IMG/VR virus record: IMGVR_UViG_3300045988_060547 | Coordinates: 1 to 38,216 of that record | Origin: a virus | DNA length: 38,216 nucleotides | Reading direction: 5' to 3' (one strand) | Shown: positions 5,294-21,936 of the stretch, piece after piece | How the letters are laid out: each line of letters starts with the position of its first letter | How positions within the stretch are numbered: position 1 is the first letter of the stretch | Program-made: the position numbers and the translations under genes | Notes under the pieces: model-generated | Told to the model about the DNA's origin: nothing | The model's database searches: none | The model's input: the letters and a program-made list of their open reading frames with translations, nothing else

Positions 5294-7545
5294 TCTTTTA
5301 CCTCCGCCTTTGCCGTGACGACCACATTTCCGGTCACGGCCTCGATGTTCACGCAGCCCTCTTCGGCATTCCACGCCGTTTTCGTAATGTCCTCGCTGCC
5401 CATCTTCACGCTCACTTCGGTCAGGGTGTACCCGCTCTCGGCGGTCAGGGCGGCTTTGTAGGCCCGGCCCTTCGCCACCACGACGGCGGTCTGGTCGGTG
5501 GTCACATGGCTCAGCCGGTTCACCACGCTGCACCACACCAGCGCCTGGCTCACCGTCACGCTGCATTCGGCCTTTGCGCCGCCTGCCGTGGCGCTGATGA
5601 GTGCGCTGCCCTCGGCCACGCCCCGCACGATGCCGCCGCTCACGGTGGCCACGTCCTCCCGGCTGCTCTGCCACACCACGGTGCGGTCGTCGGCGTTCTC
5701 GGGCCGCACGGTAGCCGTCAGCCGGGCCGTGCCGTCCACGCTCAGCTCAAGGGTGCTGCGGTCCAGCGTCACGCTGCTCACCGGCACCCTCGCCGCCTTT
5801 ACGGTCACGGTGCAGCTGGCCGTCTTGCCGCCCACGCTGGCCCGGATGATGGCCGCGCCGGCGGCGCGGGCCGTCACCACGCCGCCGTCCACCACGGCAG
5901 CCTCTTCGTTGGAGCTGGTCCATGCGATGCTGCTCTGGGGGATGCTGGTGGGCAGCACCGTGGCCGTCAGGGTGGCAGTCCTGCCCTCCGTCAGCTCCAG
6001 CGTCCCGGCGCTCAGCATCAGGCTGGCGGCTTTCAGGCCGTCCTCGGCCACCGTTACGTTGCACGCCGCCTTCACGCCGCCCGCAATGGCTGCGATCTCA
6101 GCAGTACCGGCGCAGATGGCCACCACCTCGCCCCCGGTCACGCTGGCGGTCTCCGGGTCGGCGCTGTACCACACCACAGCCTGATCAGCGTTCTCCGGGC
6201 TGACTGTGGCCGTCAGGGCCGCAGTCTCCCCCGGCTTCAGTGTCAGGGTGGTCTGGCTCAGGGTCACAGCCTCTACCGGCACCTCTGCCTCCCGCACCCG
6301 GACGGTGCAGCAGGCGTATTTCCCGCCGCTGGCGGCGAGGATGGCCGCAGCGCCCGGCTTCTTGGCCGTCACGGTGCCGTCGCTCACCTCGGCCACGGTC
6401 TCGTCGCTGCTCAGCCACGCTACGTCGCCCTCCGGGTCGGCGGCTGCGTCCAGCACCGCCGTCTCACCCGCCGTCAGGGCCAGGGCGTCGGCGCTCAGGC
6501 TCACCCGCTCCACTGCCGGCTTCACCAGCACGGCGCACTCTGCGCTGCACCCGTCTGCCCGGGCCGTGATCCGTGTCCCGCCGGGGGTCTTTGCCGTAAT
6601 GACGCCGTCCTCCACAGCGGCCACAGCCTCGTCGCTGCTCTCCCACAGCACGGTCTGCTCCGTTGCATTCTCGGGGCTGATCCGGACTCCCAGCGCCGTC
6701 CGCTCTCCCGCATACAGGGTCAGGCTGTCCCGGGTCAGCCGCACGGCCTCCACCGGCACCTCGGCCCATACCCCGCTCAGCTGGTCCAGCAGGGTGTCGG
6801 CGGTCCTGGTCTGGTAGGCAGCTTCCCGCAGCAGACGCATCAGCAGGCGGCGCTCCTCCTTTTTCGGGGCAAGGTTCGCCGCCCGGTTCGCCGCCTGGGT
6901 GGCAGCGGTGCAGGCATCCAGTGTCTCATTTGCCGCGCCCAGTGCGCTGGCAGCACTCGCTGCCGCAGCTGTGATGTCTGCCTGCGTCCTTGCCGCCGCA
7001 AGGGCAGCAGCGCTCTCGGCGTCCTCGGCATCCATCCGCTCCTTCTGGGTGGCGGCTGCGCCTTTCTGGGCGGCATCCATCGCCGCCTGCGCCGTCTTGG
7101 CCGCGTCCTTTGCGGCTGCACCCTCGTTCATGGCCGTGTTCACGGCCTGCTGCACCAGCGCCACAAACTGGGCGTATACGCTGGGGTCTACGTCCTCCAC
7201 CGTACCTGACAGCCCAATGGTCTCGTAGCAGTCGTATTTCGCCGGGCAGCTCATGGCCGTGTAGCCGTCCGCGCTCTGGGCCAGCAGCATCCACAGCCCC
7301 TGCCGGGCGGCCGTAAAGCGTCGGTCGATGGTCACTTCCCGGCTCTCGTCCAGCAGCACCGGCTGGGGCAGCGTGCCGCCCTCCTGCTCGATGTGCAGGG
7401 TCACGGCCATCCCGCTCCACTCCTCCGGCAGCGCGAAGCTCAGGCTCTCCACGCCCGCCGTTCCTACGCCGCCCAGATGCAGCACGCCCGGCTCGGCCCG
7501 CCAGCCCATCCCGCCAAACCGGTCTTTGATGATCCTTACTTTCAC
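5290..7545 (-). CDS. Tail fibre / adhesin: BppU-like N-terminus, Ala-rich coiled coil, five Big_2 Ig-like domains
   Basis: The 751-aa product starts at a GTG with an AGGAG SD. It has five repeats of about 80 aa with the pattern V..V.L....L.L..G.T..L.A.V.PENA....V.W.SS...VA.V..G.V.A...G.A.I.A..GG..A.C.V.V. Confidence 0.8.
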   Translation of the reverse strand: MKVRIIKDRFGGMGWRAEPGVLHLGGVGTAGVESLSFALPEEWSGMAVTLHIEQEGGTLPQPVLLDESREVTIDRRFTAARQGLWMLLAQSADGYTAMSCPAKYDCYETIGLSGTVEDVDPSVYAQFVALVQQAVNTAMNEGAAAKDAAKTAQAAMDAAQKGAAATQKERMDAEDAESAAALAAARTQADITAAAASAASALGAANETLDACTAATQAANRAANLAPKKEERRLLMRLLREAAYQTRTADTLLDQLSGVWAEVPVEAVRLTRDSLTLYAGERTALGVRISPENATEQTVLWESSDEAVAAVEDGVITAKTPGGTRITARADGCSAECAVLVKPAVERVSLSADALALTAGETAVLDAAADPEGDVAWLSSDETVAEVSDGTVTAKKPGAAAILAASGGKYACCTVRVREAEVPVEAVTLSQTTLTLKPGETAALTATVSPENADQAVVWYSADPETASVTGGEVVAICAGTAEIAAIAGGVKAACNVTVAEDGLKAASLMLSAGTLELTEGRTATLTATVLPTSIPQSSIAWTSSNEEAAVVDGGVVTARAAGAAIIRASVGGKTASCTVTVKAARVPVSSVTLDRSTLELSVDGTARLTATVRPENADDRTVVWQSSREDVATVSGGIVRGVAEGSALISATAGGAKAECSVTVSQALVWCSVVNRLSHVTTDQTAVVVAKGRAYKAALTAESGYTLTEVSVKMGSEDITKTAWNAEEGCVNIEAVTGNVVVTAKAEVKE
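5545..6759 (-). repeat. Tandem array of five diverged Ig-like (Big_2) coding repeats
   Basis: It covers aa 263-667 of the fibre protein. The periodicity is about 240-250 nt. Confidence 0.7.
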
Positions 7546-8379: not shown

Positions 8380-11300
8380 TTATTTCACCCCCTCCCACCA
8401 GTTCTTCTCGTTCTTCGCCTTCTCCGCCTTCTTGTCCGCATCCTTCACCCACTGCGCAAAGTTCTTTTCCTCGTACAGCGGATTCCCGTCTGCCTCCTCG
8501 AGGGCCAGCAGCTTCTTTTCCAGCCTCTCCCGGTCGCCGTCGCTTCCGGCCAGATACTCTTCCTTCACGGCCTCGGTGATCTTGCTCTTGATGCTGCCCT
8601 TGTCCTTGCCTGCGGTCATCAGGCGGTCAAGCTCCTCCTGCGCGTCCTTTGCCCGGCCATTTTTCACTTCGTCCAGGAGCGCGTCGTATATGCCGCCGTC
8701 CTTGCTGCCCGCCAGCAGTTCGTCCGCCTTGCCGTCCACCGCCTTGTTCACCACGTCGATGAGCTGCGCCCGCCGGGCCGCGTCCGCTTTGCCCTTGGCT
8801 CTGTCCGTCGCGGGGGCGACGCCCAGCCCCTCCCGCAGCTTCTCGAATACGGCCTGCCGGGCCTTTTCCTCGGCCCGGGTCTTCCCGGCGTTCCGGGCCT
8901 CGGCCGCCGCCAGCACGTCGGCGTCGTACTGCTTCAGCCGCCTTGCCAGCTCGCTGTCCACCTTGTCCGTCTTGTTCATCTGTTCCAGCTTCTTCATCGC
9001 CGCAGCAGCTTCCTCGCTGTCCCCGCTCTGGATGGCGTTGTACAGCCGGTCGTACTGCCCGGTAGCCGAAGAGGGGGCAGAGTTAAAGCTGAACCCTTCG
9101 CCTCTGCCGATGGCCTGTGCATCCTCCCAGTAGCCTTCAAACGCCTGCATCACCTTCCGGATGTTGGCCGCCGGTACGCCGTACAGCTCAAGGCCGCACT
9201 GGATGTCCTTCAGCACCGCCTTGTTCAGCTTCTGGTGGTGCGCCGCCAGCTCTTCCTCGCTCATCTCGCCGGTGTCCGTCCGCAGCAGCTTGGCGGTCTT
9301 GGTAAAGGCGGCAAACAGATCGTTCACCGCACTGATATTGGTGGCGCTCACCACGTCGTAGTCCGCGCCGCTTGCAGCGTTCGAGATAACGCTGTAGATC
9401 TCCGCTCCGTACAAAAAGTTTCCAGCTGCGCTTTCGGTGTACAGGTCGAAGAACCGCTTGCCCACGCTGGCCGCCGTGATGTCGCCGTTCTCGTCCTGCT
9501 CCCTGTCCCACCGGTGGAGCAAGAAGTCCGCGCCGATCTTCATCAGGGCAAATACCGCCGTCTGCACCGCCTGGCTTGCCGCCGCCCGGCGCAGGCTCTG
9601 CCCGGCCCGCTGTACCTCGGCCTTGTTCTCGGCGCTCTGGTCGGCAGCGTACCGGGATTTCTGGGCCTTGTAGTCGCCTACTGCGTCGGCCAGGATGCCG
9701 TAGTTCTGGAAGCGCTGGGTGGTAAACATGGTCAGCGTCTTTACAAACTCATTGTCGCTGCGCTGGATGCCCGCCCGCTGCATGGTGGTGTAGTTGGGCT
9801 GGGTCTCCTCGATGACCCGCTGGTACATCTTGTTCACGGCTTCCCAGTAGGCTTCGCTGCCCTTCTCCGCGGCACCCTCGCCGAATTCCGCTGCGTGGTG
9901 CTCCACATATCGCTTCGCGCCCTCCCACAGCGCCGCCACCGTGATCTCGTCCATGCCGGTGATCCAGCCGGTCACGGCAGGCATGGCTTCCGAGGCCTTC
10001 GCCACAAGGTTTTTGTGCGCGCCGATGGAGCTCATCTCGCCCCGCTTTGTCCCCCGCAGTCGGTATTGCAGCAGGGCGTCTCCGTGCCGGCGGATCTCTG
10101 CTTCCACCGCGGCCCGCTGCTTGCCCGAGAAATTCTTCACGAAGGGCAGCACCGCCGCCATGGTGTCTGCTCCCAGCACAGCGCCCGCCGTGGGCAGACT
10201 GGCTGCCTGCGCGATGGCCACGCCCGGGTTCACGGTCAGGATGGCCCCGGCGTAGTTGCCCCGCATCCGGTCCAGCGCCCGGCTCATGGTGCTGCTGCGG
10301 TGCCGCTGCCTGGTCTGCAGGTCGGTCAGCAGGTCATTGATGTAGCTTACCGTCTCCCTGCCCCACTTCTCGCCGATGATCTTGTCCTTCAGCACACCGA
10401 TGCCCTCTGCCGTCTCCACGGTGCTGTTCAGTACCCGCTGCACGTCCCGGATGGGGGCTGCAAGGCCCGCATAGGCTGCCGTGTCCCGCAGGCTCCGCTT
10501 CACCACGTTCTGACACTCTTCCAGCAAAATGGGCTTGTCGCTCTTCACGCGCTCCTTCAAAAAGCCCCGGCCCTCGATGGTGGCATCCATCTTCACGCCC
10601 TCGATCTCCGTCGCCAGCGTGCTCCGGTCTACCGCGATGGGGTAGTAGTTCTTCACGGTGGCCCGGTCGTAGCCCAGCAGCTTCATGCTGGTCTCGTTGA
10701 TGAGGTTCGTGGTGTACCGCCCGAAAAAGTCCTCCATGTCCTCGCACCATGCCCGGTCATAGTCCGTCATGGCGTCCTGTACCGTCTGCAAAATGGTGTC
10801 GGCCATGGGGACGCCGTCGGCGTTCACCAGTGTCCCCAGCATCACGGTCTGGCTGCGCTGGTAGGCCCTCTCGATGTTGCCCTTGGCGTACTGGACAGCG
10901 TCCGGCAGGGTCAGGCCGCCGGTCATCAGGTGGTGGCGGCTGTCCTCGTTGCGCAGCAGCATGTACAGGCTGCACAGCTGTGCGTGGTTCAGCGGCACGG
11001 CATTGCCCTTGCTGTCCTTCAGGCCGATGTCAACCAGCTCCGCCCCCGGCCCGGCAAAAGCCTCCACCTCTTTCAGGTGTTCCTTGCCGGTCACGTTGGC
11101 AAACAGGCTTTCGCCTTCTACCAGGATCTCCGTCTGCCGCCGCTGGCCGTCGTTCAGCATCTGCCCCAGCTTCTCCATCTGGCCGTTTTTAGTGTAGCCG
11201 CCCAGGCGCCGGAACATTCTCGTGCCGCCCAGCATGTCCAGCTGGTAGCGGTTCATCGCGCCCTTCGCCTTCTCAAATTTCTCCCCGAAACCGTTGCCCT

Positions 11301-14300
11301 CAGAGTTCAGCACCTCGTGGGCGGCCTTCATGGCCATGCTGTCCACTTCTTCGGCTCTCGCAAGGCTCAGGGTCTTGTTCTCGGTCCGGATCATGTGCAG
11401 GGTGCTGGCCGTGATGGCCTTCAGCATCCGCAGCTGGTCCACCGTCATGGGCAGATAGGTGCGGTTCTCCGTCTCCCGGATGCGCTGGCGCAGCCGGTCC
11501 CGCAGCTGTTCGGCCTTGTCGCCGTCCGGCAGAGCCCTGGCTTCTTCCAGCTGCTTGTTCAGCCGGTCCAGCTTTGCCTGCTTGCTGGCGCTCATGTCGT
11601 CCCGCAGCATCTGGATGAGGTTTTCCACGCCGCTGTTTTCCCAGTCGGCGTGGATGCCGGCGTCCATCTCTCCGCTGCGCCGGATGCTGTCCTGCAGGGC
11701 GGTCAGCTTGACCACGGCGTTGTTGTTCAGCACCGTCATGTCCGCCAGCTTCGCCACCTCGGCGGCCTGCACGATGAGGCTCTTCTGTACATATTTCCCG
11801 GGCTTCGGCCGCAGCACCATCTGGTTGAGCTGGGCGGCATTGTTCCGGATGCTCCGTTTCAGTTCGTCCGCCTTCCGTCCTTCCCGGGCTTTCTGTACCC
11901 GCTTTTCGGCCAGTGCCTTTGCCACGGCCACGTCTTCGTCCCGCTGCTGCCGGGCCGTTTCAATGGCGATTGCATTCCTCTGAGCCTGTTTTTCCTGCCA
12001 CGCTTCGGCCTTGCGCTGGTTCTCGGCCTCCCACTCCATGATCTCGTTTTCCTGTATCAGCAGCTGATGCTCCGCCCGGTCGGCCCGCTGCTGCTCTCCG
12101 GCCACCTGCCGGGAAAGGTCGTCGATCTGGGAGCGCAGCTGTCGGCGCTCCAGCTTTATCTCGTCCAGCATCTCCTGCCGGGCCTGCTTCATCCGGTTCT
12201 TTTCGGCCTTCCATTCCCGCTCGTAGGCTTCCCGCAGAGCAGTCATCTTCTCGTCGAGACCCGCCGCTGTGCTCACCTGTGCGCCCAGCGTTTCCAGATT
12301 CTCGTTGAGCTGTCGTTCTGCCCGGCTCACGCTCTTGACCTCGGCGCTCTGGCTGCGGCTGTTTTCCCGCATCCGGTCGGCAAAAGCCTTCCGCTGGGCC
12401 TGCTGCACGCTCTTCAGCCCCTTCGTCACCTCAGCCGCCCGCTCCTCGCTGCCGGCGGCCATGGCAGCCACCTCCCGGTTATGCTTTAAGATGCCCTCGA
12501 ACACCGCCTCGGCATCGGTCATCTCCGGGTGGCTCATGATGTCGCCGATCATCCGGCCCGCCAGCTCCACCTTGGCGTCCTCGTATTCGGCAGCGTCCGC
12601 GAACCGGCTCATCATCTTGGGCTTGATGGTGTCGTGTACGTTCATCAGCACATCGAGCCATTCCGTGCTCTCCATGACGGCTGCGCCCGCCACGCCCGCT
12701 TCCTGTGCCGCCGAGCGGAAGAGTGCCGCAGCGCTCTCCTTCACGCCGCCCACGGCCCGGGTGTCGTTCACGATGGCCTCGTACTGTTCCGCCGGGTTGC
12801 CGTCCCGGTATCCCTCCGCCTGCCGCAGCTTCACGCCGTGGCGCCGGGCCTCGGCCACCGCCTCTGTCCAGCTTCCGTACCGCTTCACAAGCTCGGCCTT
12901 GGCCTTGCCGTTCTTGTCTACCGTGTAGGTCAGGTCATGCAGGTCGGGGTACTCATCCCAGAGTTCCGTGTTCCGGTAGGTTGCCTCATCCAGCACCTCG
13001 CCTGCCAGCGTCTCGGCCAGTCCCTGCGCCTTGGCCATGTCCGCGCCCTCCGAGCGCAGATACTCCACCAGCGCCCGTGTCTCGTTTGCCAGCTTCGTCC
13101 GGTCGGTCCGGCTGCCGTTGGTCTTGGTCCACCGGATGGCGAGGCTTTCGAGGGCAGCGTCCGAGAGCCGGGTGTTCTTCGTCAGGCCGAAGAACTGGTT
13201 CAGGGTGTCAAAGGCCGCTGCCTTCTCCGCCAGTACCCGGCTGGCCTGCCGCTGCTGGTTCTGCTTGGCGTCCCGGTCGGCCTGCTCGGCCAGCTGAAAG
13301 CGGGTGGTTTTCTTCACAGGTTCGTCTGTTCTATTGCGTTCGGCAGAGGTTTGTGCTATACTCTGTTTAGAAGATACTTCCTGGGTGTCTGCAAAGGCAC
13401 TCAGCATCGCTTTCGGGAGCGATGTGGCGGTATCTTCTTTTTTTATTGGTAAGCCTTGAGTATTCAGTGTTACATAGCTTCCATCCGTCCAGCAGACTTC
13501 ATGTACATAGAACGCCCTTCGATTATCATGACGGTAAGAATTGACGATAACACTTTCATAAAGTCTTGCTCCATTGATCTCAACAGGTGCTGCAAAAACA
13601 TAGGTATCATAGCCTCTGCCCTGCCAGTTCTTTTCGTATCCAATTTGACGGCCATTTTTGATGATCTCAGGAATTGCGCCTACTGCTGCCTGTTTTGCGG
13701 CGCTGTTGCCGTGTTGGACGGTCGTTCTTGCACCTTTCACAGTCAATTCTACTGTTCCAAATCCCGACCTCTCAACACGATTTCCGAGAGAATCAAAATA
13801 AGCTGCAACATTCGCAATGTTTTCTTTTCGGCTTGTGCCAAACGAGACTTCTGTTCCCTTAATGACTGCTACCGTTTCCATCTGCTCGAGCTGTGTAAGA
13901 TTTTTATTCATCCGCTCAACAAGGGAATCTTTACCCTCATGCAGCTGAAACCGCACCCCTTTCTTTTCCGCCGCGCTCTCAGTCTTGAGAGCAGCGGCGT
14001 TTTCTTTTGCCGTCCGCAGGTTGTCCATGGCCTTTTCTGCGTGGGCGAAATACTCGTCCTGCAAAGTGCGCTTTTCGGCCTCGGCCAGGCGCTTCGCTTT
14101 CAGGGCGGCGCGGTCGTCCGGGTCGATGGTCAGCACTTCCTTCGCCCGGCTGATGAGCCCATCCAGCATCTGCCGCACCTGCTCCATCACCTTATGGATG
14201 GCGCCGCTCTTGCCTGCGTTCTTCTCTGCCTGCCCGCGCTGGAACGTCACCCAGCGCTTGAAGCTCTCCTCGCTGTCAAAGATGCCCCGCCATGCGTCGG

Positions 14301-17300
14301 CCACCAGCTCTTCCGCTGCCTGCTCGTAGGTCAGACTCTGGGCGCTGTAGTCCTCGAGCTTTGCCCGGATCATCTCGTCCAGGCTTTCGTAGCCGCTGCT
14401 CTTCGCCAGATATTCCAGCGCGTGCTCCTGCAAAGTCCTTGCGCCCTCGGCGTCCAGCGCGTTGTACCAGTGGTAGTCCTCGTGCAGCACCGTGCCGAAG
14501 ATGTCCTGCGCACTGTCGCCGAAGAAGATCCGGGCCGTCTCGGTGTCCACATAGGCCCTGATGCTCCGGTCGTTCTGCAGCACATCCCTCAGCACAGCAT
14601 CCGTGCCGGTGGCCGCCGCGTTCAGGCTGATGATCTGGCTGGCCGGGTCGCTCTCCTGCCGCATCGTACCCTTGGCGTATACCTCGCCCCTGCCGCTGGT
14701 ACTCTCGCTGCCAAGCGCGCCGCCCAGTTCGGTCATCTTTTCGGCATACAGCATCCGTTCGCCCTTGCCCTGGGTGTAGGCGATTTCAAGGGCCGTCCGG
14801 CCGGCGTCGGTGCTCAGGATATAATTGATGTCCGCCGCCGTGCCGCTCATGCTGCCCGCCAGCTCCAGCGCCTGCGCAAAGGTGGCAGCGCCTCTCCGGC
14901 CCAGCCGGTACAGCGGCGACGCTGCGGCCGCATACCGGTCGGCGTCCACCCTGTCCGGCATATTTTTGCTGATGGTCTGGGCTGCCTTATCCGTTACCCG
15001 CCAGCCTTCCAGCGCCCGCTGCACCTCAGCCTCCCGCTGGGTCTTCGGTGCTTCCGGCCGGAGACCCAGCGTCTCCCGCAGCGGGGCGTTCTCGTAGCTG
15101 TCGGTTTCAGCTGCGGCGGCAGTCGCTTCACGCACGTTGTCCGGTGCAGCCGTTTCCGGCATGGCATCGGCGGTTTCTGCGGGAGCATCCTGTACTGTCT
15201 GCGGCACATCCACAGCTTCGCCGGCCAGCTCTGCTCTCTGTGCAGCAGGCACTGCTTCGCTTTTTACGTTCTGCTGTGCGGCGATCTCCTGCAGCATCCG
15301 GCGGGTCGCGGCCGCAGTGTCGGGCAGCGTCACGCCGTAAGCCTGCTCAAAAGCCGCACGGTTTTCCCGGTTCTCGGCGTTCGGCGTAAACAGTCCGATG
15401 GTCTTGCCCGTCAGGCTGTCGCTCGCCGCCACCTCGGCAAACTGCCGCACCGCCGGGTTTTCCGACTGTGCAGCAGCCTCGTTTACGCTGCTGTTTACTC
15501 CTTCCGTCTGCGCCTGCGGCGCATCCGCCCGCTGCATACTTTCAGTGGAGCTCCGCTCTCGCGCGGCGTCAGCCGACGGGACCGGTGAGAGGTTTTCTTC
15601 CCGCCCGCTGATGTTTTCAGTGGCCGCAGGTGCAGCCTGGCTGAGAGGTTCTCCCCCCGCCAGCGCTCTATCAGTAGATCTATCCGCAGCCGGCTGAGAG
15701 GGCTCCGCCGCCCGGGCCTCCCACTCCTTCTGCCGGGCAGCGGCCCGTTTCCTCCGGTCCATCTGGTCATAATGCTCTGTCTGTCCCAGCAGGCTTGCGT
15801 CTCCTCCGTTCAGCTTTGCCAGCCCCGTGCCGACTGCGCCGCCCAACGCACCGGACGCGCCGCCGGAAAGTCCGCTTTCCAGCGCGGTGAGGAAGGTGTC
15901 TTTGGTAAACAGGTTCTTCGCCGCCTCGCTGTCCCCCAGCGCAGCGTCGATGGCCATGTCCGCATAGGTCTCCGCAAAGGCCTGCATCGAGTTGTCGATG
16001 CCGCCCGAGATGGCCGCAGCCACCGCCGGGTAGCGCTGCGCCAGCTCCGAGCTGCCCGCAAGCCCCTGCACCCAGTCCGCGATCTGCCCTGCCAGTGTGT
16101 CCTTCGCGTAGTCCGAGCCCATGGTCTTTGCAAGGTCGGCTGCGCCCACCGAGTTGATGGCCCATCCCGCGCCGAACTTGGCGAGGCCGCCGCCCAATGC
16201 CTTGCCGGCGCTCTCGCCCTTCTCCGCGCTCTGGCCCATGGCCTCTGCCGCTCCCTGTGCGCTCAGGACAGGCAGCACTGCCGCCGGGTTCACGCCCGCC
16301 ACAGCCAGGTTCTCCGCTGCGCTGGTCACGGCCCCCGCCACGGCCCGCTGGGTCGGGCTCAGGCCGCTCTGGGCCGCAGCCGTCAGCTGCTGGCCGCGGT
16401 CATAGAGCTGGTAGCCCACGCTCTGGTTCTTGTCTATGCCGTCGCTCACTTCCAGCCCCGCCAGCCTCTGGCGCATCTCCCGGATCTCCTTGGAGTTGTA
16501 CCCCATCGAGATCAGCTCCCGGTTCCGGCTCTCCGGCCAGGTGGGGTTATAATCCATGTCCATGTCGGTCAAAAGGTCAAAAAGGCTCTGGGCGTGTTCG
16601 TCGCCCTTTACCTCCTGCTCCACCTGTTTCCAGTTCTTCAGGGTGGCGTCAATGTTCTTTCCCGCCTGTACGCCGTACTCCGCGCCCAGCACCGGGGCAG
16701 CTGCCACCGTGTCCGCGATTCCGCCGATGGTGTTCGCCGTCCGGCGCACGCCCCGCTGCCATGCGGGGATGGCGTCCAGCGCAGCGTTCATCCGCCGGGC
16801 CTCGTTGATCTGCTCCTGTGTCCAGCCGCCCTTTTGGATGAGGTCGGCGTCCGTGTAGATGCCCGCGTTGTCCACCCGGCGCACCGCGTCGGCCAGATTC
16901 TTGTTGTCCCCGGTGTCCATCCACTGGTTGATCCGGTCAAACTCGTCCGGTACGCTGTCCTTGGCAAAGCTGGCTCTCAGCTCCTGCGCCGGGCCGGTGC
17001 CGTAAGCCATGGCCCCGCTGCCCACGTTCTCCAGCACGTTCCCGCTCTTCGCAGGTACGCCCCACTTCTGCCCCATGTCCAGCGCCCGGGCTGCCGCTTC
17101 CGGCATCTGCTGTGCCGGGCCGCTGCCCTCTGTAGCAGCGCCCGCCATTTTACGCCCCACAGAGCTTCCAGCGTCCAGCGGAAACTTGCCCGACACGCCA
17201 GTGGCTCCCACTCTGGGGGAGCTGGCGCGCAGCGCCTGAGAGGGCTCGTTCCTCGCATCCACTTCCCCCATGTCGCTGGAGTGCCGCTCGGTGTACTGCT

Positions 17301-17475
17301 GCAGGGCATCTGCATAGATGTTGCTTTTGGGCAGCACTGTGCTCGATGCAGTGGACGGATTCGGCGTCTTGGTGCGGATAGCTCTCACCTTTTCCGCCGT
17401 CCACCCAGAGCTTTCTGCCGCCTTCGACGGGTTGCTTTCTCTCATTTCCTTAACTTTTTCCGCTGTCCATGCCAT
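8380..17475 (-). CDS. Giant (3,031 aa) polyvalent virion / ejection protein
   Basis: It is an uninterrupted ORF whose ATG overlaps the upstream stop. The N-terminal third is Gly/Ala-rich. An HExxH motif (VLHEDYHW) lies at aa 998-1002 (14470-14484). An LPD/PBECR-like module covers roughly aa 1190-1340. The C-terminal half is long and helical. Confidence 0.9.
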   Translation of the reverse strand: MAWTAEKVKEMRESNPSKAAESSGWTAEKVRAIRTKTPNPSTASSTVLPKSNIYADALQQYTERHSSDMGEVDARNEPSQALRASSPRVGATGVSGKFPLDAGSSVGRKMAGAATEGSGPAQQMPEAAARALDMGQKWGVPAKSGNVLENVGSGAMAYGTGPAQELRASFAKDSVPDEFDRINQWMDTGDNKNLADAVRRVDNAGIYTDADLIQKGGWTQEQINEARRMNAALDAIPAWQRGVRRTANTIGGIADTVAAAPVLGAEYGVQAGKNIDATLKNWKQVEQEVKGDEHAQSLFDLLTDMDMDYNPTWPESRNRELISMGYNSKEIREMRQRLAGLEVSDGIDKNQSVGYQLYDRGQQLTAAAQSGLSPTQRAVAGAVTSAAENLAVAGVNPAAVLPVLSAQGAAEAMGQSAEKGESAGKALGGGLAKFGAGWAINSVGAADLAKTMGSDYAKDTLAGQIADWVQGLAGSSELAQRYPAVAAAISGGIDNSMQAFAETYADMAIDAALGDSEAAKNLFTKDTFLTALESGLSGGASGALGGAVGTGLAKLNGGDASLLGQTEHYDQMDRRKRAAARQKEWEARAAEPSQPAADRSTDRALAGGEPLSQAAPAATENISGREENLSPVPSADAARERSSTESMQRADAPQAQTEGVNSSVNEAAAQSENPAVRQFAEVAASDSLTGKTIGLFTPNAENRENRAAFEQAYGVTLPDTAAATRRMLQEIAAQQNVKSEAVPAAQRAELAGEAVDVPQTVQDAPAETADAMPETAAPDNVREATAAAAETDSYENAPLRETLGLRPEAPKTQREAEVQRALEGWRVTDKAAQTISKNMPDRVDADRYAAAASPLYRLGRRGAATFAQALELAGSMSGTAADINYILSTDAGRTALEIAYTQGKGERMLYAEKMTELGGALGSESTSGRGEVYAKGTMRQESDPASQIISLNAAATGTDAVLRDVLQNDRSIRAYVDTETARIFFGDSAQDIFGTVLHEDYHWYNALDAEGARTLQEHALEYLAKSSGYESLDEMIRAKLEDYSAQSLTYEQAAEELVADAWRGIFDSEESFKRWVTFQRGQAEKNAGKSGAIHKVMEQVRQMLDGLISRAKEVLTIDPDDRAALKAKRLAEAEKRTLQDEYFAHAEKAMDNLRTAKENAAALKTESAAEKKGVRFQLHEGKDSLVERMNKNLTQLEQMETVAVIKGTEVSFGTSRKENIANVAAYFDSLGNRVERSGFGTVELTVKGARTTVQHGNSAAKQAAVGAIPEIIKNGRQIGYEKNWQGRGYDTYVFAAPVEINGARLYESVIVNSYRHDNRRAFYVHEVCWTDGSYVTLNTQGLPIKKEDTATSLPKAMLSAFADTQEVSSKQSIAQTSAERNRTDEPVKKTTRFQLAEQADRDAKQNQQRQASRVLAEKAAAFDTLNQFFGLTKNTRLSDAALESLAIRWTKTNGSRTDRTKLANETRALVEYLRSEGADMAKAQGLAETLAGEVLDEATYRNTELWDEYPDLHDLTYTVDKNGKAKAELVKRYGSWTEAVAEARRHGVKLRQAEGYRDGNPAEQYEAIVNDTRAVGGVKESAAALFRSAAQEAGVAGAAVMESTEWLDVLMNVHDTIKPKMMSRFADAAEYEDAKVELAGRMIGDIMSHPEMTDAEAVFEGILKHNREVAAMAAGSEERAAEVTKGLKSVQQAQRKAFADRMRENSRSQSAEVKSVSRAERQLNENLETLGAQVSTAAGLDEKMTALREAYEREWKAEKNRMKQARQEMLDEIKLERRQLRSQIDDLSRQVAGEQQRADRAEHQLLIQENEIMEWEAENQRKAEAWQEKQAQRNAIAIETARQQRDEDVAVAKALAEKRVQKAREGRKADELKRSIRNNAAQLNQMVLRPKPGKYVQKSLIVQAAEVAKLADMTVLNNNAVVKLTALQDSIRRSGEMDAGIHADWENSGVENLIQMLRDDMSASKQAKLDRLNKQLEEARALPDGDKAEQLRDRLRQRIRETENRTYLPMTVDQLRMLKAITASTLHMIRTENKTLSLARAEEVDSMAMKAAHEVLNSEGNGFGEKFEKAKGAMNRYQLDMLGGTRMFRRLGGYTKNGQMEKLGQMLNDGQRRQTEILVEGESLFANVTGKEHLKEVEAFAGPGAELVDIGLKDSKGNAVPLNHAQLCSLYMLLRNEDSRHHLMTGGLTLPDAVQYAKGNIERAYQRSQTVMLGTLVNADGVPMADTILQTVQDAMTDYDRAWCEDMEDFFGRYTTNLINETSMKLLGYDRATVKNYYPIAVDRSTLATEIEGVKMDATIEGRGFLKERVKSDKPILLEECQNVVKRSLRDTAAYAGLAAPIRDVQRVLNSTVETAEGIGVLKDKIIGEKWGRETVSYINDLLTDLQTRQRHRSSTMSRALDRMRGNYAGAILTVNPGVAIAQAASLPTAGAVLGADTMAAVLPFVKNFSGKQRAAVEAEIRRHGDALLQYRLRGTKRGEMSSIGAHKNLVAKASEAMPAVTGWITGMDEITVAALWEGAKRYVEHHAAEFGEGAAEKGSEAYWEAVNKMYQRVIEETQPNYTTMQRAGIQRSDNEFVKTLTMFTTQRFQNYGILADAVGDYKAQKSRYAADQSAENKAEVQRAGQSLRRAAASQAVQTAVFALMKIGADFLLHRWDREQDENGDITAASVGKRFFDLYTESAAGNFLYGAEIYSVISNAASGADYDVVSATNISAVNDLFAAFTKTAKLLRTDTGEMSEEELAAHHQKLNKAVLKDIQCGLELYGVPAANIRKVMQAFEGYWEDAQAIGRGEGFSFNSAPSSATGQYDRLYNAIQSGDSEEAAAAMKKLEQMNKTDKVDSELARRLKQYDADVLAAAEARNAGKTRAEEKARQAVFEKLREGLGVAPATDRAKGKADAARRAQLIDVVNKAVDGKADELLAGSKDGGIYDALLDEVKNGRAKDAQEELDRLMTAGKDKGSIKSKITEAVKEEYLAGSDGDRERLEKKLLALEEADGNPLYEEKNFAQWVKDADKKAEKAKNEKNWWEGVK

Positions 17476-18800
17476 CAGCCCTTCACCCCCGCCTTCTCAA
17501 GCGCTCTTGCGATTTCTTCATCGCTGTACCCGTTCTGGTTCATATTGTTCATGATAGCCCACGCGCTATAACCTTTTTTCGCATAGTTCTTTGCCAGCAT
17601 TTCCGCCATATCTACGCCGCCGCTCTGGCTTGCGCTCTGGACGTTCGCAGTATCCGCATTGAGCCACCCATTATCCGTTAAGGTCTTCTTGTAAAAATCG
17701 TACAGCGGCTCATTTCCCTTCATAGAAGAAAATGTCTTTGCCATACTTTGCAGTTGGCTGTTCGTCCAGCTGTTTCCGCTGCCTTTCGTGCTGCTGCTCC
17801 TTCTGCCCGAAGACCCGCCCGAGCTCCCTGCGCTCTTTTTCGCCAGCGCCGTTGCAAGCTGCCGTCCTGCGATCGTCCTGTAATTCCCCACAGAGTTTGG
17901 ATCCAGGCCGTACAGTTCCAGCACCGCCCGTGCAGCCTCGTCGCTGCCGCCGCCTGCCAGCCCGGCTGCGGTCGTGAGCGCACCCGCCTTGTCTGCGCGG
18001 GTGATGGGTGCGCCGCTGTAATTGTCAAAAATGCCGGTGTCCAGACCATACCGGCCCAGAACGGCGTTCGCGGCATCGCCCGCTCCCTGCTGGTACAGGT
18101 TGAACGCCTGCTCGTAGGCATTCAGTGCATCGCTCTGGCCGGTGCGCTCTTTGTTGTACTCCCACTGTTCCCGGGCAAACTCGTTCTCCCACTGCTGCTG
18201 GGTGTAGCCCTTGTAGGTGTCGTAGGCCGTCAGACCGGCTCTGCCCACACTCTTCGCCATCTCCCACAGGTTCGAGAGAAAGTCGCTCTTCTCCTGCGCC
18301 GCCTGATCTGCCCGGCTCTTCTTGTAGTCCCTCCAGTCCTGCGCGTTGGCCACAGCCCCCTGATGCTCCGCCGCCTCAAGGCTGTCCTGATTCTGCAGCG
18401 CACTCAGCAGCCCCGAGAGGCCGTTCTGCTTCAGCTGGTACATGGTCAGGGCCTTGTCCCGCAGCCCGGCCAGCCCGCTGTCCACGTTCGCCATGGCCTG
18501 CTGGTAGCCCTGCTGGGCCACACTGTTTGCGTAGCTCGAGCCGTACCCGCCGCTCAGCGCGGCAGCGCCCGCAGCGGCGTTCTCAGCCGCCGCCCTGGCA
18601 TTCGCCTGCGCGCCCGCGCGGTACTGCCGGTAGAGTTCGCTGTCCGTGCCTACGTCATAGCCCGCATTGCTGGCTGCGCCCATGCTGTCCAGTGCCTCGT
18701 TGATCCGGTTGCCGTAGTTGCTCTGGTACGCCCCCGGCATCGCGTTCTCCGCTTCCTTCTGTGCCGCCTGCGCGTTCCTGTATCTCTTAAAAACTCCCAT
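17475..18800 (-). CDS. Putative internal virion / ejection protein (441 aa)
   Basis: The product is Q/N/A/G-rich and carries SGGYGSSY. Its N-terminal region is paralogous to the 193-aa protein upstream. The gene is translationally coupled to the giant gene. Confidence 0.55.
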   Translation of the reverse strand: MGVFKRYRNAQAAQKEAENAMPGAYQSNYGNRINEALDSMGAASNAGYDVGTDSELYRQYRAGAQANARAAAENAAAGAAALSGGYGSSYANSVAQQGYQQAMANVDSGLAGLRDKALTMYQLKQNGLSGLLSALQNQDSLEAAEHQGAVANAQDWRDYKKSRADQAAQEKSDFLSNLWEMAKSVGRAGLTAYDTYKGYTQQQWENEFAREQWEYNKERTGQSDALNAYEQAFNLYQQGAGDAANAVLGRYGLDTGIFDNYSGAPITRADKAGALTTAAGLAGGGSDEAARAVLELYGLDPNSVGNYRTIAGRQLATALAKKSAGSSGGSSGRRSSSTKGSGNSWTNSQLQSMAKTFSSMKGNEPLYDFYKKTLTDNGWLNADTANVQSASQSGGVDMAEMLAKNYAKKGYSAWAIMNNMNQNGYSDEEIARALEKAGVKG

Positions 18801-18912: not shown

Positions 18913-19494
18913 TTACAACAGAAACGGCAGCAGGCTTGCGGCAACGCTCAGGATCGTCCCAAAGAGGCCCGTCCCCCGGCTCTTCTTCGCCTGGCTTTCG
19001 CTGGCCGCCTGATTGTACGCGCTCTGATAGTAGTTGCGCTGGTTCTCCCAGTTCTGGTAGTTGGTCTGGTACTTCTCGTAGTCCTGCGCCTCGGCCTGCT
19101 GGTATCCGCTCAGCTGGTTCTGCAGGTCGCTCTTTTTCTGGGTGTACTGGTTCAGCGCCTGGCTGTACAGACCGTTCGTGGCGCTGCTCAGGCCCGCCAT
19201 GGCGTTCTGGTAGGCGCTCTGACCCGCCTGGGTGCCGTAGCTGGAGCCGTACCCGCCCGAGATGGCGCTGGCGTTGGCCTGGGCGTTCTCGTTAGCCAGC
19301 TTCGCCTGCCGGGTGTAGCTGTTCTTATACTGCTCGTAGGCCGCATCCCGGGTGGGGTCGTAGCTAAAATCCTTCATCCCGTCCAGCTTGCCCATCACGC
19401 CGTCGATCTTGTCCTTGTATTTGCTGGTGTAGTCGCCCGGCTTCTTCGCCTCCCAAGCATCCAGCTGCACTCTCGCATCGCTCACTCTGCTCAT
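18913..19494 (-). CDS. Putative internal virion / ejection protein (193 aa) with a C-terminal TM segment
   Basis: The product carries SGGYGSSYGTQAGQSAYQNAMAGL and is paralogous to the 441-aa protein. It ends in GLFGTILSVAASLLPFLL. A GGAGGA SD is present. Confidence 0.55.
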   Translation of the reverse strand: MSRVSDARVQLDAWEAKKPGDYTSKYKDKIDGVMGKLDGMKDFSYDPTRDAAYEQYKNSYTRQAKLANENAQANASAISGGYGSSYGTQAGQSAYQNAMAGLSSATNGLYSQALNQYTQKKSDLQNQLSGYQQAEAQDYEKYQTNYQNWENQRNYYQSAYNQAASESQAKKSRGTGLFGTILSVAASLLPFLL

Positions 19495-19518: not shown

Positions 19519-19707
19519 TTATTTCAGCTTCTCCTGCAGATCCCCCGCAAGGTTCTCCGTGTCAATGTTGCTCAAAATGTATTCCAGCTGCTCCTGCATC
19601 TGGTACAGATAATTTCTCAGCTCCCGGGCGCTGGCCGTATCCAGCCCATCCAGCCTCGGCATGGAGATCTTCGAAAGTCCCACAATGCTAGCCACGTCTC
19701 GGCACAC
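19519..19707 (-). CDS. Small helical protein, unknown function (start uncertain)
   Basis: The product is 62 aa or shorter and contains ...ARELRNYLYQMQEQLEYILSNIDTENL... The GTG start abuts its SD. An internal ATG at 19662 is possible. Confidence 0.4.
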   Translation of the reverse strand: MCRDVASIVGLSKISMPRLDGLDTASARELRNYLYQMQEQLEYILSNIDTENLAGDLQEKLK

Positions 19708-21553
19708 CTCCGTTCACTCTTCCGCCCTCGCTGCTGCTCAGCGTCATGGCGATGCTCCTCACTGCGATCTGCCCTTTTCCGGTCAGGCGCAGCCGCATGG
19801 TGTCGTGCCGGGTCGGGACAAAGGGCAGGTTCACCTGCACCCGCCTGTCCCGGGTGTCCACCCGGCCCTTTTCTTCCCACTCGCCGCCGTCGAAGCTGGC
19901 CCACAGCGTCACTACGGTCCGCTCCATCGCGTCCAGCCGCACCGTCACCCGGCTGCAGTACTTGTCGTCCGGATCTCCGAGTCCGATGTCTCCGGTCACG
20001 GCCTCGTATTCCACCGTGTCCTCTTCGCCGCCGGCTTCCCGGCTCCCGTCTGCGGCCCAGATGGCCTCTTTGTCCCAGAGGTAGAGCTGCCGCCCGGTGG
20101 AGCACATGGCCCAGCCGGTGGCGTCCTCCTCGTGCCAGAGTCCCTTTTCTGTGTCGTAGACCAGCAGCCGCTGCCCGCCGGGGCTTTCGGTGTGCAGGTA
20201 GTACCGTCCCACCAGCCCGCCGGCGGCCGCTCTTGTCACCCGGCTCATGGCCGTCTCGTCCAGCGAGGCCGACACCTTGGTGGGCAGGCTGCCGTCCCAC
20301 GCCATGACGCCGTCCATCGAGAGGTAGTACAGTGTCTCGTTGATGACGCAGAGGCTCTGGTGGGCGCCCTTGGCCACGCCCGAGCACTGGATGCTGCTCA
20401 TCTGGTAGTCGCTGGGCTTGGTGCCGTAGAGCTTGTGTAAGCCGTTCTCCTTGAAGAAAAGCACGTATCCCATGCAGGTAGCCGCGCCGGTAAAGGCTCC
20501 GTCGCTGCCCACGGTCACGGCATAGCTGTCCGCTGCCGTGCCGCGATAGGAGAACCAGTTGGTGGCGTCACCCAGCTTGCAGGCATAGATGACGTTCTCG
20601 GTGCTCGAGCAGCCCCAGACACGGTTGTTGTGCTCTGTCAGCCAGTCCAGATCCGGCACCCGCCGCTGGGCCGTCACGTCCGGGAAAGGCCCGTCGAAGG
20701 TCTGGGTGGTCTTGCCGTCCATGGCCGTCCACACCACGCTCTGCCCCGTCACCACACAGGTGCCGTAGTACAAAACGCTCTCAATGTCCGGCGCGATGGA
20801 GAGGATCACCGAGTCCCCGGCCACGTCGTCCACCACCACGTCCCCGCCGAAATCGGCGGAATAGGCGTTCTTCACCACGCCGGGGATGCCCGTCAGGGTC
20901 ACAGTGTCCCCAGCCTTGAACGCTTTGCCCAGCCCCTCGCAGGTCACGCGGCAGTAGTTCAGCAGGATGTTCTGCCACCCGCCCGCCGTGCTGTAGAGCT
21001 TCAGGGCGTCGCGGTAGCTCCACGGGGCATCTTCGGCCTGCTTGAGCCAGACGTCGCCGTTCTCGGGGTTTTCCGGCTCGGTCGCGCCGAATTTGTTCGG
21101 CGTGTACACCACGCCCGCAGCGTCGCAGGGGGTCACAGTCAGGCTTTTACCTCCCTGCTGCCAGCCGGATCCCAGCGCGCTCAGCGTCCCCGCTGCGGTA
21201 TCAAAGGACATCTTATCCGGCCAGATGAGCACTTTGGTCCCCATGCCCACCATCTTCTTCTCGCCGTCCGTCAGGGCGTCCTTCAGCTCCACGGTGTCGC
21301 CGCCGTCATCCGGGGCATACCGCAGAGTCGTGCCTTCCACGGTCACAAGGCCGTTCAGGTGGTACATCCCGTTCATTCCGGCTGCATCCCGCACTTTCCG
21401 CCGGGGCTTACGGGTCTCGAGGGCCGGGTATCCCCGCGAAGAAAAGTTCTTCTCCTTGCTCAGCTCTGCCTCGCTGCACGCATACCCCTCGTTCAGCCCG
21501 CCGAATGCCCGCAGCAGCTGCCGCTGACTGTTGATCTGGTTCAGGTTCGTCAC
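19688..21553 (-). CDS. Large tail structural protein (nozzle / tubular-protein-B-like, beta-rich)
   Basis: The product is 621 aa counted from GTG 21553, which overlaps the upstream stop (GTGA) and has a GGGAGG SD. Repeated beta-strand-like segments are present (LYYLSMDGVMAWDG, LYLWDKEAIWA). The call rests mainly on position and size. Confidence 0.45.
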   Translation of the reverse strand: MTNLNQINSQRQLLRAFGGLNEGYACSEAELSKEKNFSSRGYPALETRKPRRKVRDAAGMNGMYHLNGLVTVEGTTLRYAPDDGGDTVELKDALTDGEKKMVGMGTKVLIWPDKMSFDTAAGTLSALGSGWQQGGKSLTVTPCDAAGVVYTPNKFGATEPENPENGDVWLKQAEDAPWSYRDALKLYSTAGGWQNILLNYCRVTCEGLGKAFKAGDTVTLTGIPGVVKNAYSADFGGDVVVDDVAGDSVILSIAPDIESVLYYGTCVVTGQSVVWTAMDGKTTQTFDGPFPDVTAQRRVPDLDWLTEHNNRVWGCSSTENVIYACKLGDATNWFSYRGTAADSYAVTVGSDGAFTGAATCMGYVLFFKENGLHKLYGTKPSDYQMSSIQCSGVAKGAHQSLCVINETLYYLSMDGVMAWDGSLPTKVSASLDETAMSRVTRAAAGGLVGRYYLHTESPGGQRLLVYDTEKGLWHEEDATGWAMCSTGRQLYLWDKEAIWAADGSREAGGEEDTVEYEAVTGDIGLGDPDDKYCSRVTVRLDAMERTVVTLWASFDGGEWEEKGRVDTRDRRVQVNLPFVPTRHDTMRLRLTGKGQIAVRSIAMTLSSSEGGRVNGGVPRRG

Positions 21554-21936
21554 GTCATCAGCCTCCCGCCGCCTACCGGCATATAATTTCGCCTCACCCA
21601 CGCCGCAAACTCCTGCACATAGCTCGTGTAGAGCTGCAATTCGTTCGCCGCCCGGGCTGTCTCGCCGAGGGCGAGGTCCATCTGCGCCGCCAGCCAGTGG
21701 GGGTAGAGCGCTTCCGCCGCGCCGTCTGCCAGCAGCGGCGTGTCGTATTCCAACCCCTCCTCCCACAAAATATCCGCGCCGCGGCCCTCAAAGTCGCCGT
21801 CGGTGTCGCTGCGCTCCACCACGCTCCGGCGTAAGCCGCTGTCGGCCTGCCGCAGCCACAGCTGCTTCATCTCGTCTGAAAAGCTGTTGTTCGGCCTCAG
21901 CTCGTCGGCCATCTTTATCGCTTCGCCTGCTGTCAT
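21550..21936 (-). CDS. Possible head-tail adaptor (128 aa)
   Basis: The start was set at ATG 21936, preceded by GGAGGT. The gene lies between the capsid-associated gene and the large tail protein. The call is from synteny only. Confidence 0.4.
   Translation of the reverse strand: MTAGEAIKMADELRPNNSFSDEMKQLWLRQADSGLRRSVVERSDTDGDFEGRGADILWEEGLEYDTPLLADGAAEALYPHWLAAQMDLALGETARAANELQLYTSYVQEFAAWVRRNYMPVGGGRLMT

Follow-up and report, generated by a model that had tools for sequence, protein, structure and literature searches.

A giant phage protein with a conserved chassis and one exchangeable cargo slot, a candidate packaged polyvalent protein of a temperate Faecalibacterium phage

We analysed a stretch of viral DNA of 38,216 nucleotides (IMG/VR record IMGVR_UViG_3300045988_060547, positions 1 to 38,216; hereafter the window), in which a single open reading frame (ORF) on the minus strand encodes a giant protein of 3,031 amino acids (aa). 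Comparison of this protein with its relatives pointed to a fixed chassis, predicted to consist of an N-terminal helical domain, an ArdC-like zincin metallopeptidase and a long C-terminal scaffold, with a single slot for exchangeable cargo between peptidase and scaffold. On balance, and with modest confidence, we read the giant as a polyvalent protein that is packaged in the virion and injected, combining the conserved chassis, the protease and one cargo slot in one polypeptide. The family to which it belongs is very large, still lacks a name and is characteristic of temperate podovirus-type phages of ~40 kb that have a P22-type portal. Coordinates of the principal features are collected in Table 1.

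The DNA of 88 related loci was gathered, of which 53 were complete. In all 53 the homologue was one ORF of 3,020–3,630 aa, and the giant ORF of the window (~331 kDa; 23.8 % of the window) is therefore considered real and its single-ORF state conserved. An initial annotation of the sequence, which had described one uninterrupted ORF of 9.1 kb filling about a quarter of the genome, was correct in this respect. In a 90 %-clustered protein database the family was present only as pieces of at most ~1,800 aa, with starts scattered at internal Met residues (entries P0001–P0237). These short entries suggested a split gene, a possibility that was rejected on the DNA of the 53 complete loci; judged against that DNA, the entries are truncations of the giant protein. 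Length-limited gene calling may conceal giant phage proteins in routine surveys. Interrupted copies were also seen. In two Faecalibacterium prophages (L001 and L002) the region was annotated as two genes: L001, on a 911-kb contig, has one in-frame stop (~9908–9910) at the equivalent of Trp-1449 (AIRW to AIR*), and L002 has a frame change within the cargo insert (~9900–10100). The giant gene was likewise interrupted in L026, L038, L084 and L085, with frame changes.

Cargo slot, border motif and peptidase

A full-length alignment of the window protein and 53 relatives, read alongside two sub-alignments, contained one hypervariable region, at aa ~1174–1395, and the contents of this slot comprised nine types. 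LPD3 alone was found in the window and four loci. Other arrangements were LPD3 with PBECR5 (plus ~320 aa; 15 loci), a divergent LPD3 with an unnamed module X (14 loci), LPD3 with module X (9 + 1 loci), MuF_C with module X (4 loci), MuF_C with PBECR5 (3 loci), MuF_C alone (2 loci) and module X alone (1 locus). Up to 526 extra residues were present directly after aa 1395 in 47 of the 53 relatives. The window protein shared 97–98 % identity with L012 in all chassis blocks and 50 % in the slot, and 93–97 % identity with L016 in the chassis blocks and 29 % in the slot. Near-identical scaffolds thus carry different cargo, indicating that exchange is recent relative to scaffold divergence.

LPD3 is the only cargo module in the window copy. 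AlphaFold2 modelled it as an alpha+beta module with a predicted local distance difference test score (pLDDT) of ~75, and weak Foldseek matches to NTF2-like structures were the sole hint at its function. The LPD/PBECR-like module reported by the initial annotation stands as LPD3, whereas PBECR domains occur in relatives and are absent from this copy. A Pfam scan of the N-terminal halves of 21 relatives recovered LPD3 in 16, PBECR5 in 8, MuF_C in 4 and PBECR3 in 2. Thirteen distant giants displayed a broader repertoire, with the polyvalent ADP-ribosyltransferase domain (ART-PolyVal) in six, PBECR5 and PBECR3 in three each, MuF_C in two, and GNAT, methyltransferase and LPD3 in one each; MuF_C is itself a BECR-fold domain (Iyer et al., PMC5512222). 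Module X (~290 aa) served as cargo in ~29 of the 53 relatives (e.g. L016 and L034) and comprises a coiled coil and, after it, the conserved block GYILPDG...RDTDHREI...GNVRVMAEAPGVD; no Pfam match to it was found. At least two domains of the polyvalent repertoire, LPD3 and a predicted zincin-type peptidase, share one polypeptide in the window, and its gene lies among phage late and virion genes, in a prophage in L001 and L002, with synteny kept at ~20 % identity. The classification as a polyvalent protein, already proposed in the initial annotation, is upheld by LPD3, by the conserved HExxH...E and by the PBECR5, PBECR3, MuF_C, ART-PolyVal, GNAT and methyltransferase domains carried by relatives on the same scaffold.

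The borders of the slot are marked by a short peptide, which we refer to as the punctuation motif. In the window protein LPD3 is flanked by VRFQL and TRFQL; in close relatives [VIT]R[FY][QS]x was found solely at module borders, including the end of the second module (18 sequences), and distant members carry D-[IV]-R-[FY]-[SQ]-[LM]. In 49 distant giants the motif occurred 32 times versus 5.6 expected, with nearly all copies 150–1,500 aa downstream of the HExxH. Across 117 giants the four-residue core occurred 123 times versus 52 ± 6.5 in shuffles (z ~11), within the extended context P-T-E-x-x-D-[IV]-R-[YF]-[SQ]-[LIM]-[KR], at 30–70 % of protein length and with domain-sized spacing. We infer that the punctuation motifs are processing sites for the zincin acting in cis. 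The preference of thermolysin-type zincins for a hydrophobic P1' residue is compatible with a cut before the conserved L/M/I. Sites of the LQLFA type cut by Prp proteases were absent from the giant and present in the capsid protein leader and the Prp fusion described below, and Prp is less likely than the in-cis zincin to be the giant's protease.

Across clades, the region containing the predicted peptidase (aa 800–1170) was 63–86 % identical. The zincin-type HExxH pointed out by the initial annotation was recovered at the stated position (14470–14484, with VLHEDYHW spanning 14467–14490) as the only copy in the protein and is conserved in homologues. As a chance HExxH appeared in ~3 % of shuffles of the giant protein, its significance lies in its conservation and not in its occurrence. 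In a domain-restricted alignment of 22 homologues at 15–49 % identity, H998, E999, H1002 and E1056 were the only invariant columns. The HExxH and a Glu ~56–57 residues downstream were likewise invariant in two wider alignments, and in the one with 13 giants at 20–41 % identity they were among very few invariant residues of the N-terminal half. Such conservation identifies the four residues as the predicted set for metal binding and catalysis in a gluzincin. In a profile search of the PDB, ArdC (6i89, 6sna) came first, with M3B oligoendopeptidase and Wss1 also listed, all at a non-significant E of ~0.4; the ArdC alignment covers its HExTH helix and its EELIAE helix (EELVAD in the giant). Comparison of the peptidase profile with ArdC of plasmid R7K in hhalign returned 82 % probability (E 1.1e-5), and the order of elements in the AlphaFold2 model, namely two strands, the HExxH helix, two insert helices and the Glu helix, fits a zincin. 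On the conservation and the hhalign result we accept the zincin assignment, with a predicted ArdC-like fold for aa ~930–1120.

Scaffold, N-terminal domain and genomic setting

The C-terminal scaffold displayed 61–98 % identity to all relatives and matched PHROG 22978 and 28077. An AlphaFold2 model of aa 1840–3031 (mean pLDDT 69, predicted template modelling score 0.55) was helical over ~72 % of its residues and included a small alpha/beta region at aa ~2140–2370, in agreement with the helical C-terminal half read from the sequence initially. The extreme charged coiled coil that had been placed at aa ~1660–1800 is indeed a charged helical zone, but is better placed at aa ~1730–1900, and the model has a helix at aa 1841–1888 within it. 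Invariant columns of the scaffold core persisted in members at 17–23 % identity. An exhaustive HMMER search with aa 1990–3031 matched at least 5,906 representative clusters (50 % identity) at E ≤1e-3 and 2,411 at E ≤1e-30; among the matches listed, most were 2,200–5,189 aa long and matched at the C-terminal end. Two distant members (~20 % identity) were located on temperate phage contigs of 40–43 kb, of which the giant takes up 29–32 %, with the gene order P22-type portal, Prp, capsid, mid-sized proteins, giant, fibre or lysin, and integrase.

PDB sequence and profile searches with the whole protein, the N-terminal half and the C-terminal half returned nothing informative, and Foldseek comparison of both models with the PDB returned nothing significant (for the C-terminal model best E 0.19, TM-score <0.1, generic helical repeats). 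The viral structure library BFVD gave 49 matches at E ≤1e-3, with TM-scores of 0.4–0.55 over ~1,000 residues, in every case to downstream (non-N-terminal) segments of giant proteins from phages. Among the annotations of these proteins are PolyVal ADP-ribosyltransferase, LPD-containing, MuF C-terminal, nuclease and N-acetyltransferase proteins. Two matches, from the cultured Tenacibaculum phage Gundel_1 and Flavobacterium phage vB_FspP_elemoC, were annotated as 'structural protein'; Gundel is a podovirus (PMC8776804). The earlier statement that most of the protein matches nothing nameable is half right, as the C-terminal half matches PHROG 22978, at least 5,906 clusters and 49 predicted viral structures, all of them uncharacterized.

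Two further features of the scaffold were considered. An uncharged segment at aa 2406–2436 is a tentative candidate for a membrane-interacting element. In the charged tail, a profile comparison with the CW_7 repeat of Cpl-7 (5i8l) was marginal (whole-sequence E 8e-5, per-repeat E 0.035–0.05), and Pfam CW_7 gave no match in nine tails scanned at E ≤1; a peptidoglycan-binding CW_7 repeat was accordingly rejected as a candidate, and no claim of wall binding is made for the tail. The tail also contains a sub-threshold match to the tape measure model TIGR02675 (tape_meas_nterm) at aa 2814–2869, with 17.3 bits versus a cutoff of 21.35 (E 0.004). No match to the giant was obtained with the Pfam and PHROG tape measure models, and the genome has a P22-type portal with no tube genes found; identification of the giant as a tape measure protein was rejected.

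The giant begins with the duplicated WTAEKV motif noted initially, at aa 3 and aa 25. Variants of this motif, usually in two copies, also head the proteins of divergent clades (MGWSAQDIEKLRK; MAWTAADINRL...KKWTANDIAAL), and a packaging signal is one possibility for its role. The N-terminal helical domain that follows has a Gly/Ala-rich core (aa 352–553) ending in GGASGALGGAVG, which is the best-conserved part of the N-terminal half. Residues 351–550 were 74–88 % identical to relatives versus 21–45 % in the adjacent linkers, with many residues invariant, and the N-terminal block could be aligned to giants at 15–22 % identity, among which G420, G538 and G542 were invariant. Sequence and profile searches found no informative PDB relative of this domain, and AlphaFold2 confidence was low over it (mean pLDDT of the N-terminal half model 48.8). 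The initial annotation had called the N-terminal third Gly/Ala-rich and membrane-like. The first part is borne out by a Gly plus Ala content of 26–39 % across aa 100–900; the second is not, the highest Kyte–Doolittle value (window of 19) in the whole protein being 1.34 versus a usual threshold of ~1.6. Uncharged, weakly hydrophobic Gly/Ala stretches are located at aa 389–410, 534–553 and 2406–2436.

The window represents a temperate podovirus-type phage of Faecalibacterium, with a P22-type portal (PF16510), an integrase and no tape measure found. Genome matches were to Faecalibacterium metagenome-assembled genomes (MAGs), except for one MAG labelled uncultured Clostridiales bacterium, and the only matches in the phage collection were human faecal virome fragments lacking annotation. 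Genes are arranged in the order TerL, P22-type portal, Prp/scaffold-like protein, major capsid protein (MCP), PHROG 511 protein, the 193-aa and 441-aa paralogues and the giant, followed downstream by a MazE/YafQ-like pair, an immunoglobulin (Ig)-rich protein of 751 aa, a Hoc-like protein and an endolysin. No tail tube, sheath or tape measure genes were found among the window genes, and the layout is on that account podovirus-like. The giant occupies a position like that of T7 gp16, in a run of internal-protein genes between the head and internal genes and the fibre gene. Both parts of the initial reading on this point, a genome without a tape measure and a giant in the gp16 position, thus agree with the P22-type portal, the absence of tube and tape measure genes among those found and the synteny kept at ~20 % identity. 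A helix-turn-helix (HTH) regulator, a replication initiator and a Mom-like gene are also encoded in the window.

Immediately upstream, the ORF of the 441-aa protein overlaps the giant ORF by 1 nucleotide (nt) in the sequence TGATG. The initial annotation had reported ATGA coupling to two upstream genes; the junction is a different one and the 441-aa gene is the sole gene abutting the giant, as the 193-aa ORF ends 112 nt upstream of the 441-aa gene. This tight junction is not kept in relatives, with gaps of 209 nt (L001) and 12 nt (L002). The 441-aa and 193-aa proteins, paralogues that share 36 % identity across 153 aa (E 3e-22), have no Pfam, PHROG or NCBIfam family match, and Tyr, Gln, Asn, Ala and Gly are abundant in both (e.g. 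GGYGSSY). The 441-aa protein is a candidate internal or ejection protein. The ORF of the 692-aa PHROG 511 protein has a GTG start and an implausible, Arg/Gly-rich first ~70 residues, and its true start is probably further downstream. In two distant loci, proteins encoded next to the giant or near it carry wall-binding domains: PG_binding_1 in the immediate upstream neighbour in L093 (8669–9982, plus strand) and CBM_5_12 two genes upstream in L092 (8602–8991, plus strand). These domains are hints that internal proteins neighbouring the giant may deal with the cell wall.

On the downstream side, a MazE-like antitoxin and a YafQ/ParE-like toxin (7766–8032 and 8032–8355, minus strand) are encoded between the giant and the fibre genes. 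Such a pair was present in only 8 of ~54 related loci irrespective of cargo type, and therefore looks like a moron. In most loci a fibre gene followed within 130–240 nt downstream of the giant. No small downstream gene co-varied with cargo type in the related loci, which argues against a toxin–immunity cassette.

Elsewhere in the window, a 432-aa protein (23733–25031, minus strand) joins a Prp cysteine protease (aa 6–104) to a scaffold-like domain (PHROG 13908). Exactly at the fusion junction (~24666–24677) lies an L27-type Prp site, LQLFA, and there is another in the leader (MKNHMNLQLFAQ) of the MCP (22588–23580, minus strand) at ~23548–23559. The phage's own Prp thus probably trims the capsid protein and frees the scaffold, as these sites suggest; in the distant locus L093 a Prp gene likewise follows the P22-type portal. 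A low-GC island at 34000–37000 (GC 0.43–0.49 versus ~0.62 elsewhere) lies just before the integrase and contains the HTH regulator (35312–35686, plus strand) and a 225-aa ORF with no family match (35739–36416, plus strand). The Mom-like DNA modification protein (1180–1632, minus strand; PHROG 1384, E 2e-37) is encoded near the lysis end.

Table 1. Positions of the giant gene, its domains and motifs, and selected genes of the window
Feature	Position	Strand	Remarks
Giant ORF	8380..17475	-	ATG start, 3,031 aa plus stop
Duplicated N-terminal motif W-[TS]-x-[ED]-phi-x-x-x-R	17371..17475	-	WTAEKV at aa 3 and 25
N-terminal helical domain, aa 150–560	15796..17028	-	Conserved in relatives
Ala/Glu/Pro/Gln-rich low-complexity linker, aa 561–800	15076..15795	-	Poorly conserved, low alignment occupancy, pLDDT <50
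Predicted zincin-type metallopeptidase region, aa 800–1170	13966..15078	-	Predicted catalytic core ~aa 930–1120
HExxH motif (HEDYH), aa 998–1002	14470..14484	-	Sole HExxH in the protein
E1056, candidate third zinc ligand, EELVAD helix	14308..14310	-	Aligns with ArdC EELIAE
Punctuation motif 1 (VRFQL), aa 1174–1178	13942..13956	-	Left slot border; present here in 38 sequences
LPD3 domain, aa 1221–1319	13519..13815	-	Pfam PF18798, E 4e-8, above curated cutoff
Punctuation motif 2 (TRFQL), aa 1391–1395	13291..13305	-	Right slot border; present here in 51 sequences
Alpha-helical C-terminal scaffold, aa 1396–3031	8383..13290	-	~1,640 aa, conserved full length
Highly charged long-helix zone, aa ~1730–1900	11776..12288	-	72-aa Pro/Gly-free run at aa 1794–1865
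Most conserved scaffold core, aa ~2110–2600	9676..11148	-	Invariant TQPNY at aa 2558–2562
31-aa uncharged, weakly hydrophobic segment, aa 2406–2436	10168..10260	-	QAASLPTAGA; QAASYPTAAA in distant members
Charged C-terminal tail, aa 2800–3031	8383..9078	-	Two ~45-aa helical repeats (YDxL..G..A..L..GK..IKSKI..EY)
Upstream 441-aa protein gene	17475..18800	-	Stop overlaps giant ATG (TGATG)
Upstream 193-aa protein	18913..19494	-	Paralogue of the 441-aa protein
692-aa protein, PHROG 511 'internal virion protein'	19688..21766	-	E 2.5e-46, match at aa 360–683
751-aa Big_2/Ig-rich fibre or structural protein	5290..7545	-	Downstream of giant
Integrase	36699–38006	+	

Packaging, processing and competing explanations

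If the giant is a packaged and injected polyvalent protein, it would be made late together with the virion proteins and packed into the capsid, and would leave through the portal and short tail at infection. The chassis would help the DNA to cross wall and membrane, and the in-cis zincin would cut at the punctuation motifs to free the cargo in the new host. Packaging and ejection are suggested by gene context and by the precedents of the polyvalent proteins of Iyer et al. 2017, the N4 virion RNA polymerase (vRNAP), P1 Dar and phi24B gp47.

Several observations weigh against this account. The PDB zincin matches were individually non-significant (E ~0.4), the AlphaFold2 model reached a pLDDT of only 50–68 over the peptidase region, Foldseek with that model recovered no zincin and the Pfam MPTase-PolyVal model did not match the giant. 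No sequence or fold similarity to T7 gp15, gp16 or any solved ejection protein was detected, albeit with a model of moderate confidence, and the Kyte–Doolittle scan found no transmembrane-grade segment in the giant; the role of ejection conduit suggested in the initial annotation accordingly found no direct support. Homology of the scaffold to phi24B gp47 was rejected as profiles found nothing, leaving that protein an analogue only. The interrupted prophage copies may mean that the gene is dispensable or decaying in some lysogens, or may be assembly errors. The punctuation motif could equally be read as a structural linker or a recombination joint. The analysis shows the ORF and its domains, the invariant catalytic residues, the one slot and its recent exchange, where the motif lies and how enriched it is, the synteny and the family size; packaging, ejection, cleavage at the motif, any conduit role and the function of LPD3 are inferred.

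We hold it to be possible but less likely that the punctuation motif is a conserved flexible joint, serving as a structural linker or as a short patch of homology for in-frame recombination of cargo cassettes, and that the protein acts uncleaved like the N4 vRNAP, with the zincin serving elsewhere, such as in encapsidation, attack on host proteins or wall remodelling. Where near-identical scaffolds are compared, identity drops abruptly at the motifs, as recombination joints would produce, the motif stretch is of low confidence in the AlphaFold2 model and probably disordered, and the N4 vRNAP is packaged unprocessed despite its metallopeptidase (MPTase) domain (Iyer et al.). Recombination, however, requires identity at the DNA level, yet the peptide motif persists with changed flanks at ~20 % identity, and this speaks against a role at the DNA level alone. 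Processing is the simplest explanation for an invariant protease site that is conserved alongside the motif in one polypeptide, and the hydrophobic P1' preference mentioned above fits a cut before L/M/I.

A purely structural component of the virion, such as a core, tail plug or ruler in which the enzymatic-looking modules are vestigial and no effector is delivered, appears unlikely. The location of the gene between head and fibre genes, the long helical and partly very charged scaffold, the sub-threshold TIGR02675 match and the two fold relatives annotated as 'structural protein' are all in keeping with it. Against this, that tape measure match lies below the cutoff and no other such model matches, the portal is of P22 type with no tube or sheath genes found, and the zincin catalytic residues are invariant over very wide divergence; the fast turnover of ADP-ribosyltransferase, RNase-fold and acetyltransferase cargo would be sensible only if it acts on a target cell. 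We regard as very improbable that the giant is never packaged and is instead a late cytoplasmic weapon (a toxin, anti-defence or superinfection exclusion factor) that acts in the producing cell or after lysis. Its cassette-like effector turnover does resemble that of polymorphic toxins, and in the window a toxin–antitoxin pair adjoins the gene, but that pair is confined to 8 loci independent of cargo and no downstream gene co-varies with the cargo. Moreover, the giant gene keeps its place inside the virion module across very wide divergence, the part of the protein that varies is internal rather than C-terminal, and neither a secretion signal nor a MuF N-domain is present.

Returning to a packaged, injected polyvalent protein, a broader proposal can be advanced tentatively: the family may be a general effector-delivery chassis of temperate podoviruses infecting monoderm gut Firmicutes, in which one giant replaces the classical three-protein ejectosome as the device for crossing wall and membrane, and modules in the single slot are released by the in-cis zincin at D-[IV]-R-[FY]-[SQ]-[LMI]. 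If this were true, the motif would constitute the first processing signal defined for polyvalent proteins and could serve to predict cargo boundaries in thousands of giants. We found no description of a chassis with a single slot, of the punctuation motif or of the size of the scaffold family, though parts of the scaffold may equal LPD families in the supplement of Iyer et al. For the question of how polyvalent proteins are packaged, delivered and cut, the family offers a clean case, with an invariant protease site, one slot and a border motif, and the motif could help to delimit domains in those giant phage proteins for which current annotation is blank. In temperate phages of ~40 kb, among them prophages of the key human gut commensal Faecalibacterium, the giant takes up 24–32 % of the genome, and the family represents a large uncharacterized share of gut phage coding capacity. 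Rapid exchange of cargo suggests an arms race with host defences and could shape the host range of gut phages.

Comparison with known systems

Given that polyvalent proteins are established and giant podovirus virion proteins have precedents, the giant belongs to a known class. The closest general parallel is with the polyvalent proteins of Iyer et al. 2017 (PMC5512222), of which those encoded in phages beside virion genes were proposed to be packaged, injected and processed by a metallopeptidase. In common with these, the giant is a large polypeptide encoded among late and virion genes, combines a zincin with LPD, PBECR or ADP-ribosyltransferase modules, and varies in domain architecture between orthologues. 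Unlike in the proteins of that study, its variable modules are confined to one internal slot of a fixed chassis of ~2,800 aa, its N-terminal domain and C-terminal scaffold match no Pfam LPD model, and its peptidase is missed by Pfam MPTase-PolyVal. An inter-module linker or cleavage motif is not mentioned there.

The MuF polymorphic toxins of temperate phages, reportedly described by Jamet et al. in 2017, resemble the giant as phage head-associated carriers of exchangeable effectors, including RNase-fold and ADP-ribosyltransferase types. They have an N-terminal MuF domain (SPP1 gp7-like), a C-terminal toxin and often an immunity gene, whereas the cargo of the giant is internal; Pfam detected no Phage_Mu_F N-domain in it, and in the relatives that have MuF_C it is found only as internal cargo. 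The antirestriction protein ArdC of IncW plasmids (6i89, 6sna) shares with the giant a helix and strands leading into the HExTH(W/F) helix, followed by an EEL(I/V)A(E/D) helix. It differs in being 297 aa long and in having an ArdC-N domain that binds single-stranded DNA, while the giant has an extra two-helix insert of ~35 aa between the catalytic helices; statistical support for this likeness is moderate.

Among podovirus virion proteins, gp47 (vb_24B_48) of the Shiga toxin (Stx) phage phi24B is a polyvalent protein of 2,807 aa that was detected in virions by mass spectrometry, was absent from the cryo-electron microscopy map and has been put forward as an ejection protein (bioRxiv 10.64898/2026.04.10.717836). 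Like the giant, it comes from a temperate podovirus, contains HExxH sites and is preceded by a gene for a protein of ~420 aa. It differs in carrying LPD5, LPD1 and LPD38, in its diderm host and in lying at the genome end rather than between head and fibre genes. Profiles of the C-terminal region and the whole giant found no scaffold match in gp47, of which only two HExxH sites matched the giant's peptidase profile, and weakly. The vRNAP of phage N4 (gp50, 3,500 aa) is likewise a podovirus protein with a zincin MPTase, and it is packaged and injected; it carries its MPTase yet is packaged unprocessed (Iyer et al., PMC5512222). No N4-like RNA polymerase domain was found in the giant by Pfam, PHROGs, PDB profiles or Foldseek.

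The ejection proteins of T7 (gp14, gp15 and gp16) and P22 (gp7, gp20 and gp16) provide the parallel in gene order, with internal-protein genes in series between the head genes and the fibre gene, the last of the series being the largest, and with largely helical products. In contrast to these proteins, the giant has no lytic transglycosylase, is 2.3 times the size of T7 gp16, carries a predicted protease and exchangeable cargo, and comes from a phage with a Firmicute host. Ejection proteins diverge beyond recognition, and their classical sets, known from phages that infect diderms, are lacking in phi29-like podoviruses (review PMC8954989). The delivery of DNA by podoviruses of Firmicutes is therefore a question to which this family may be relevant.

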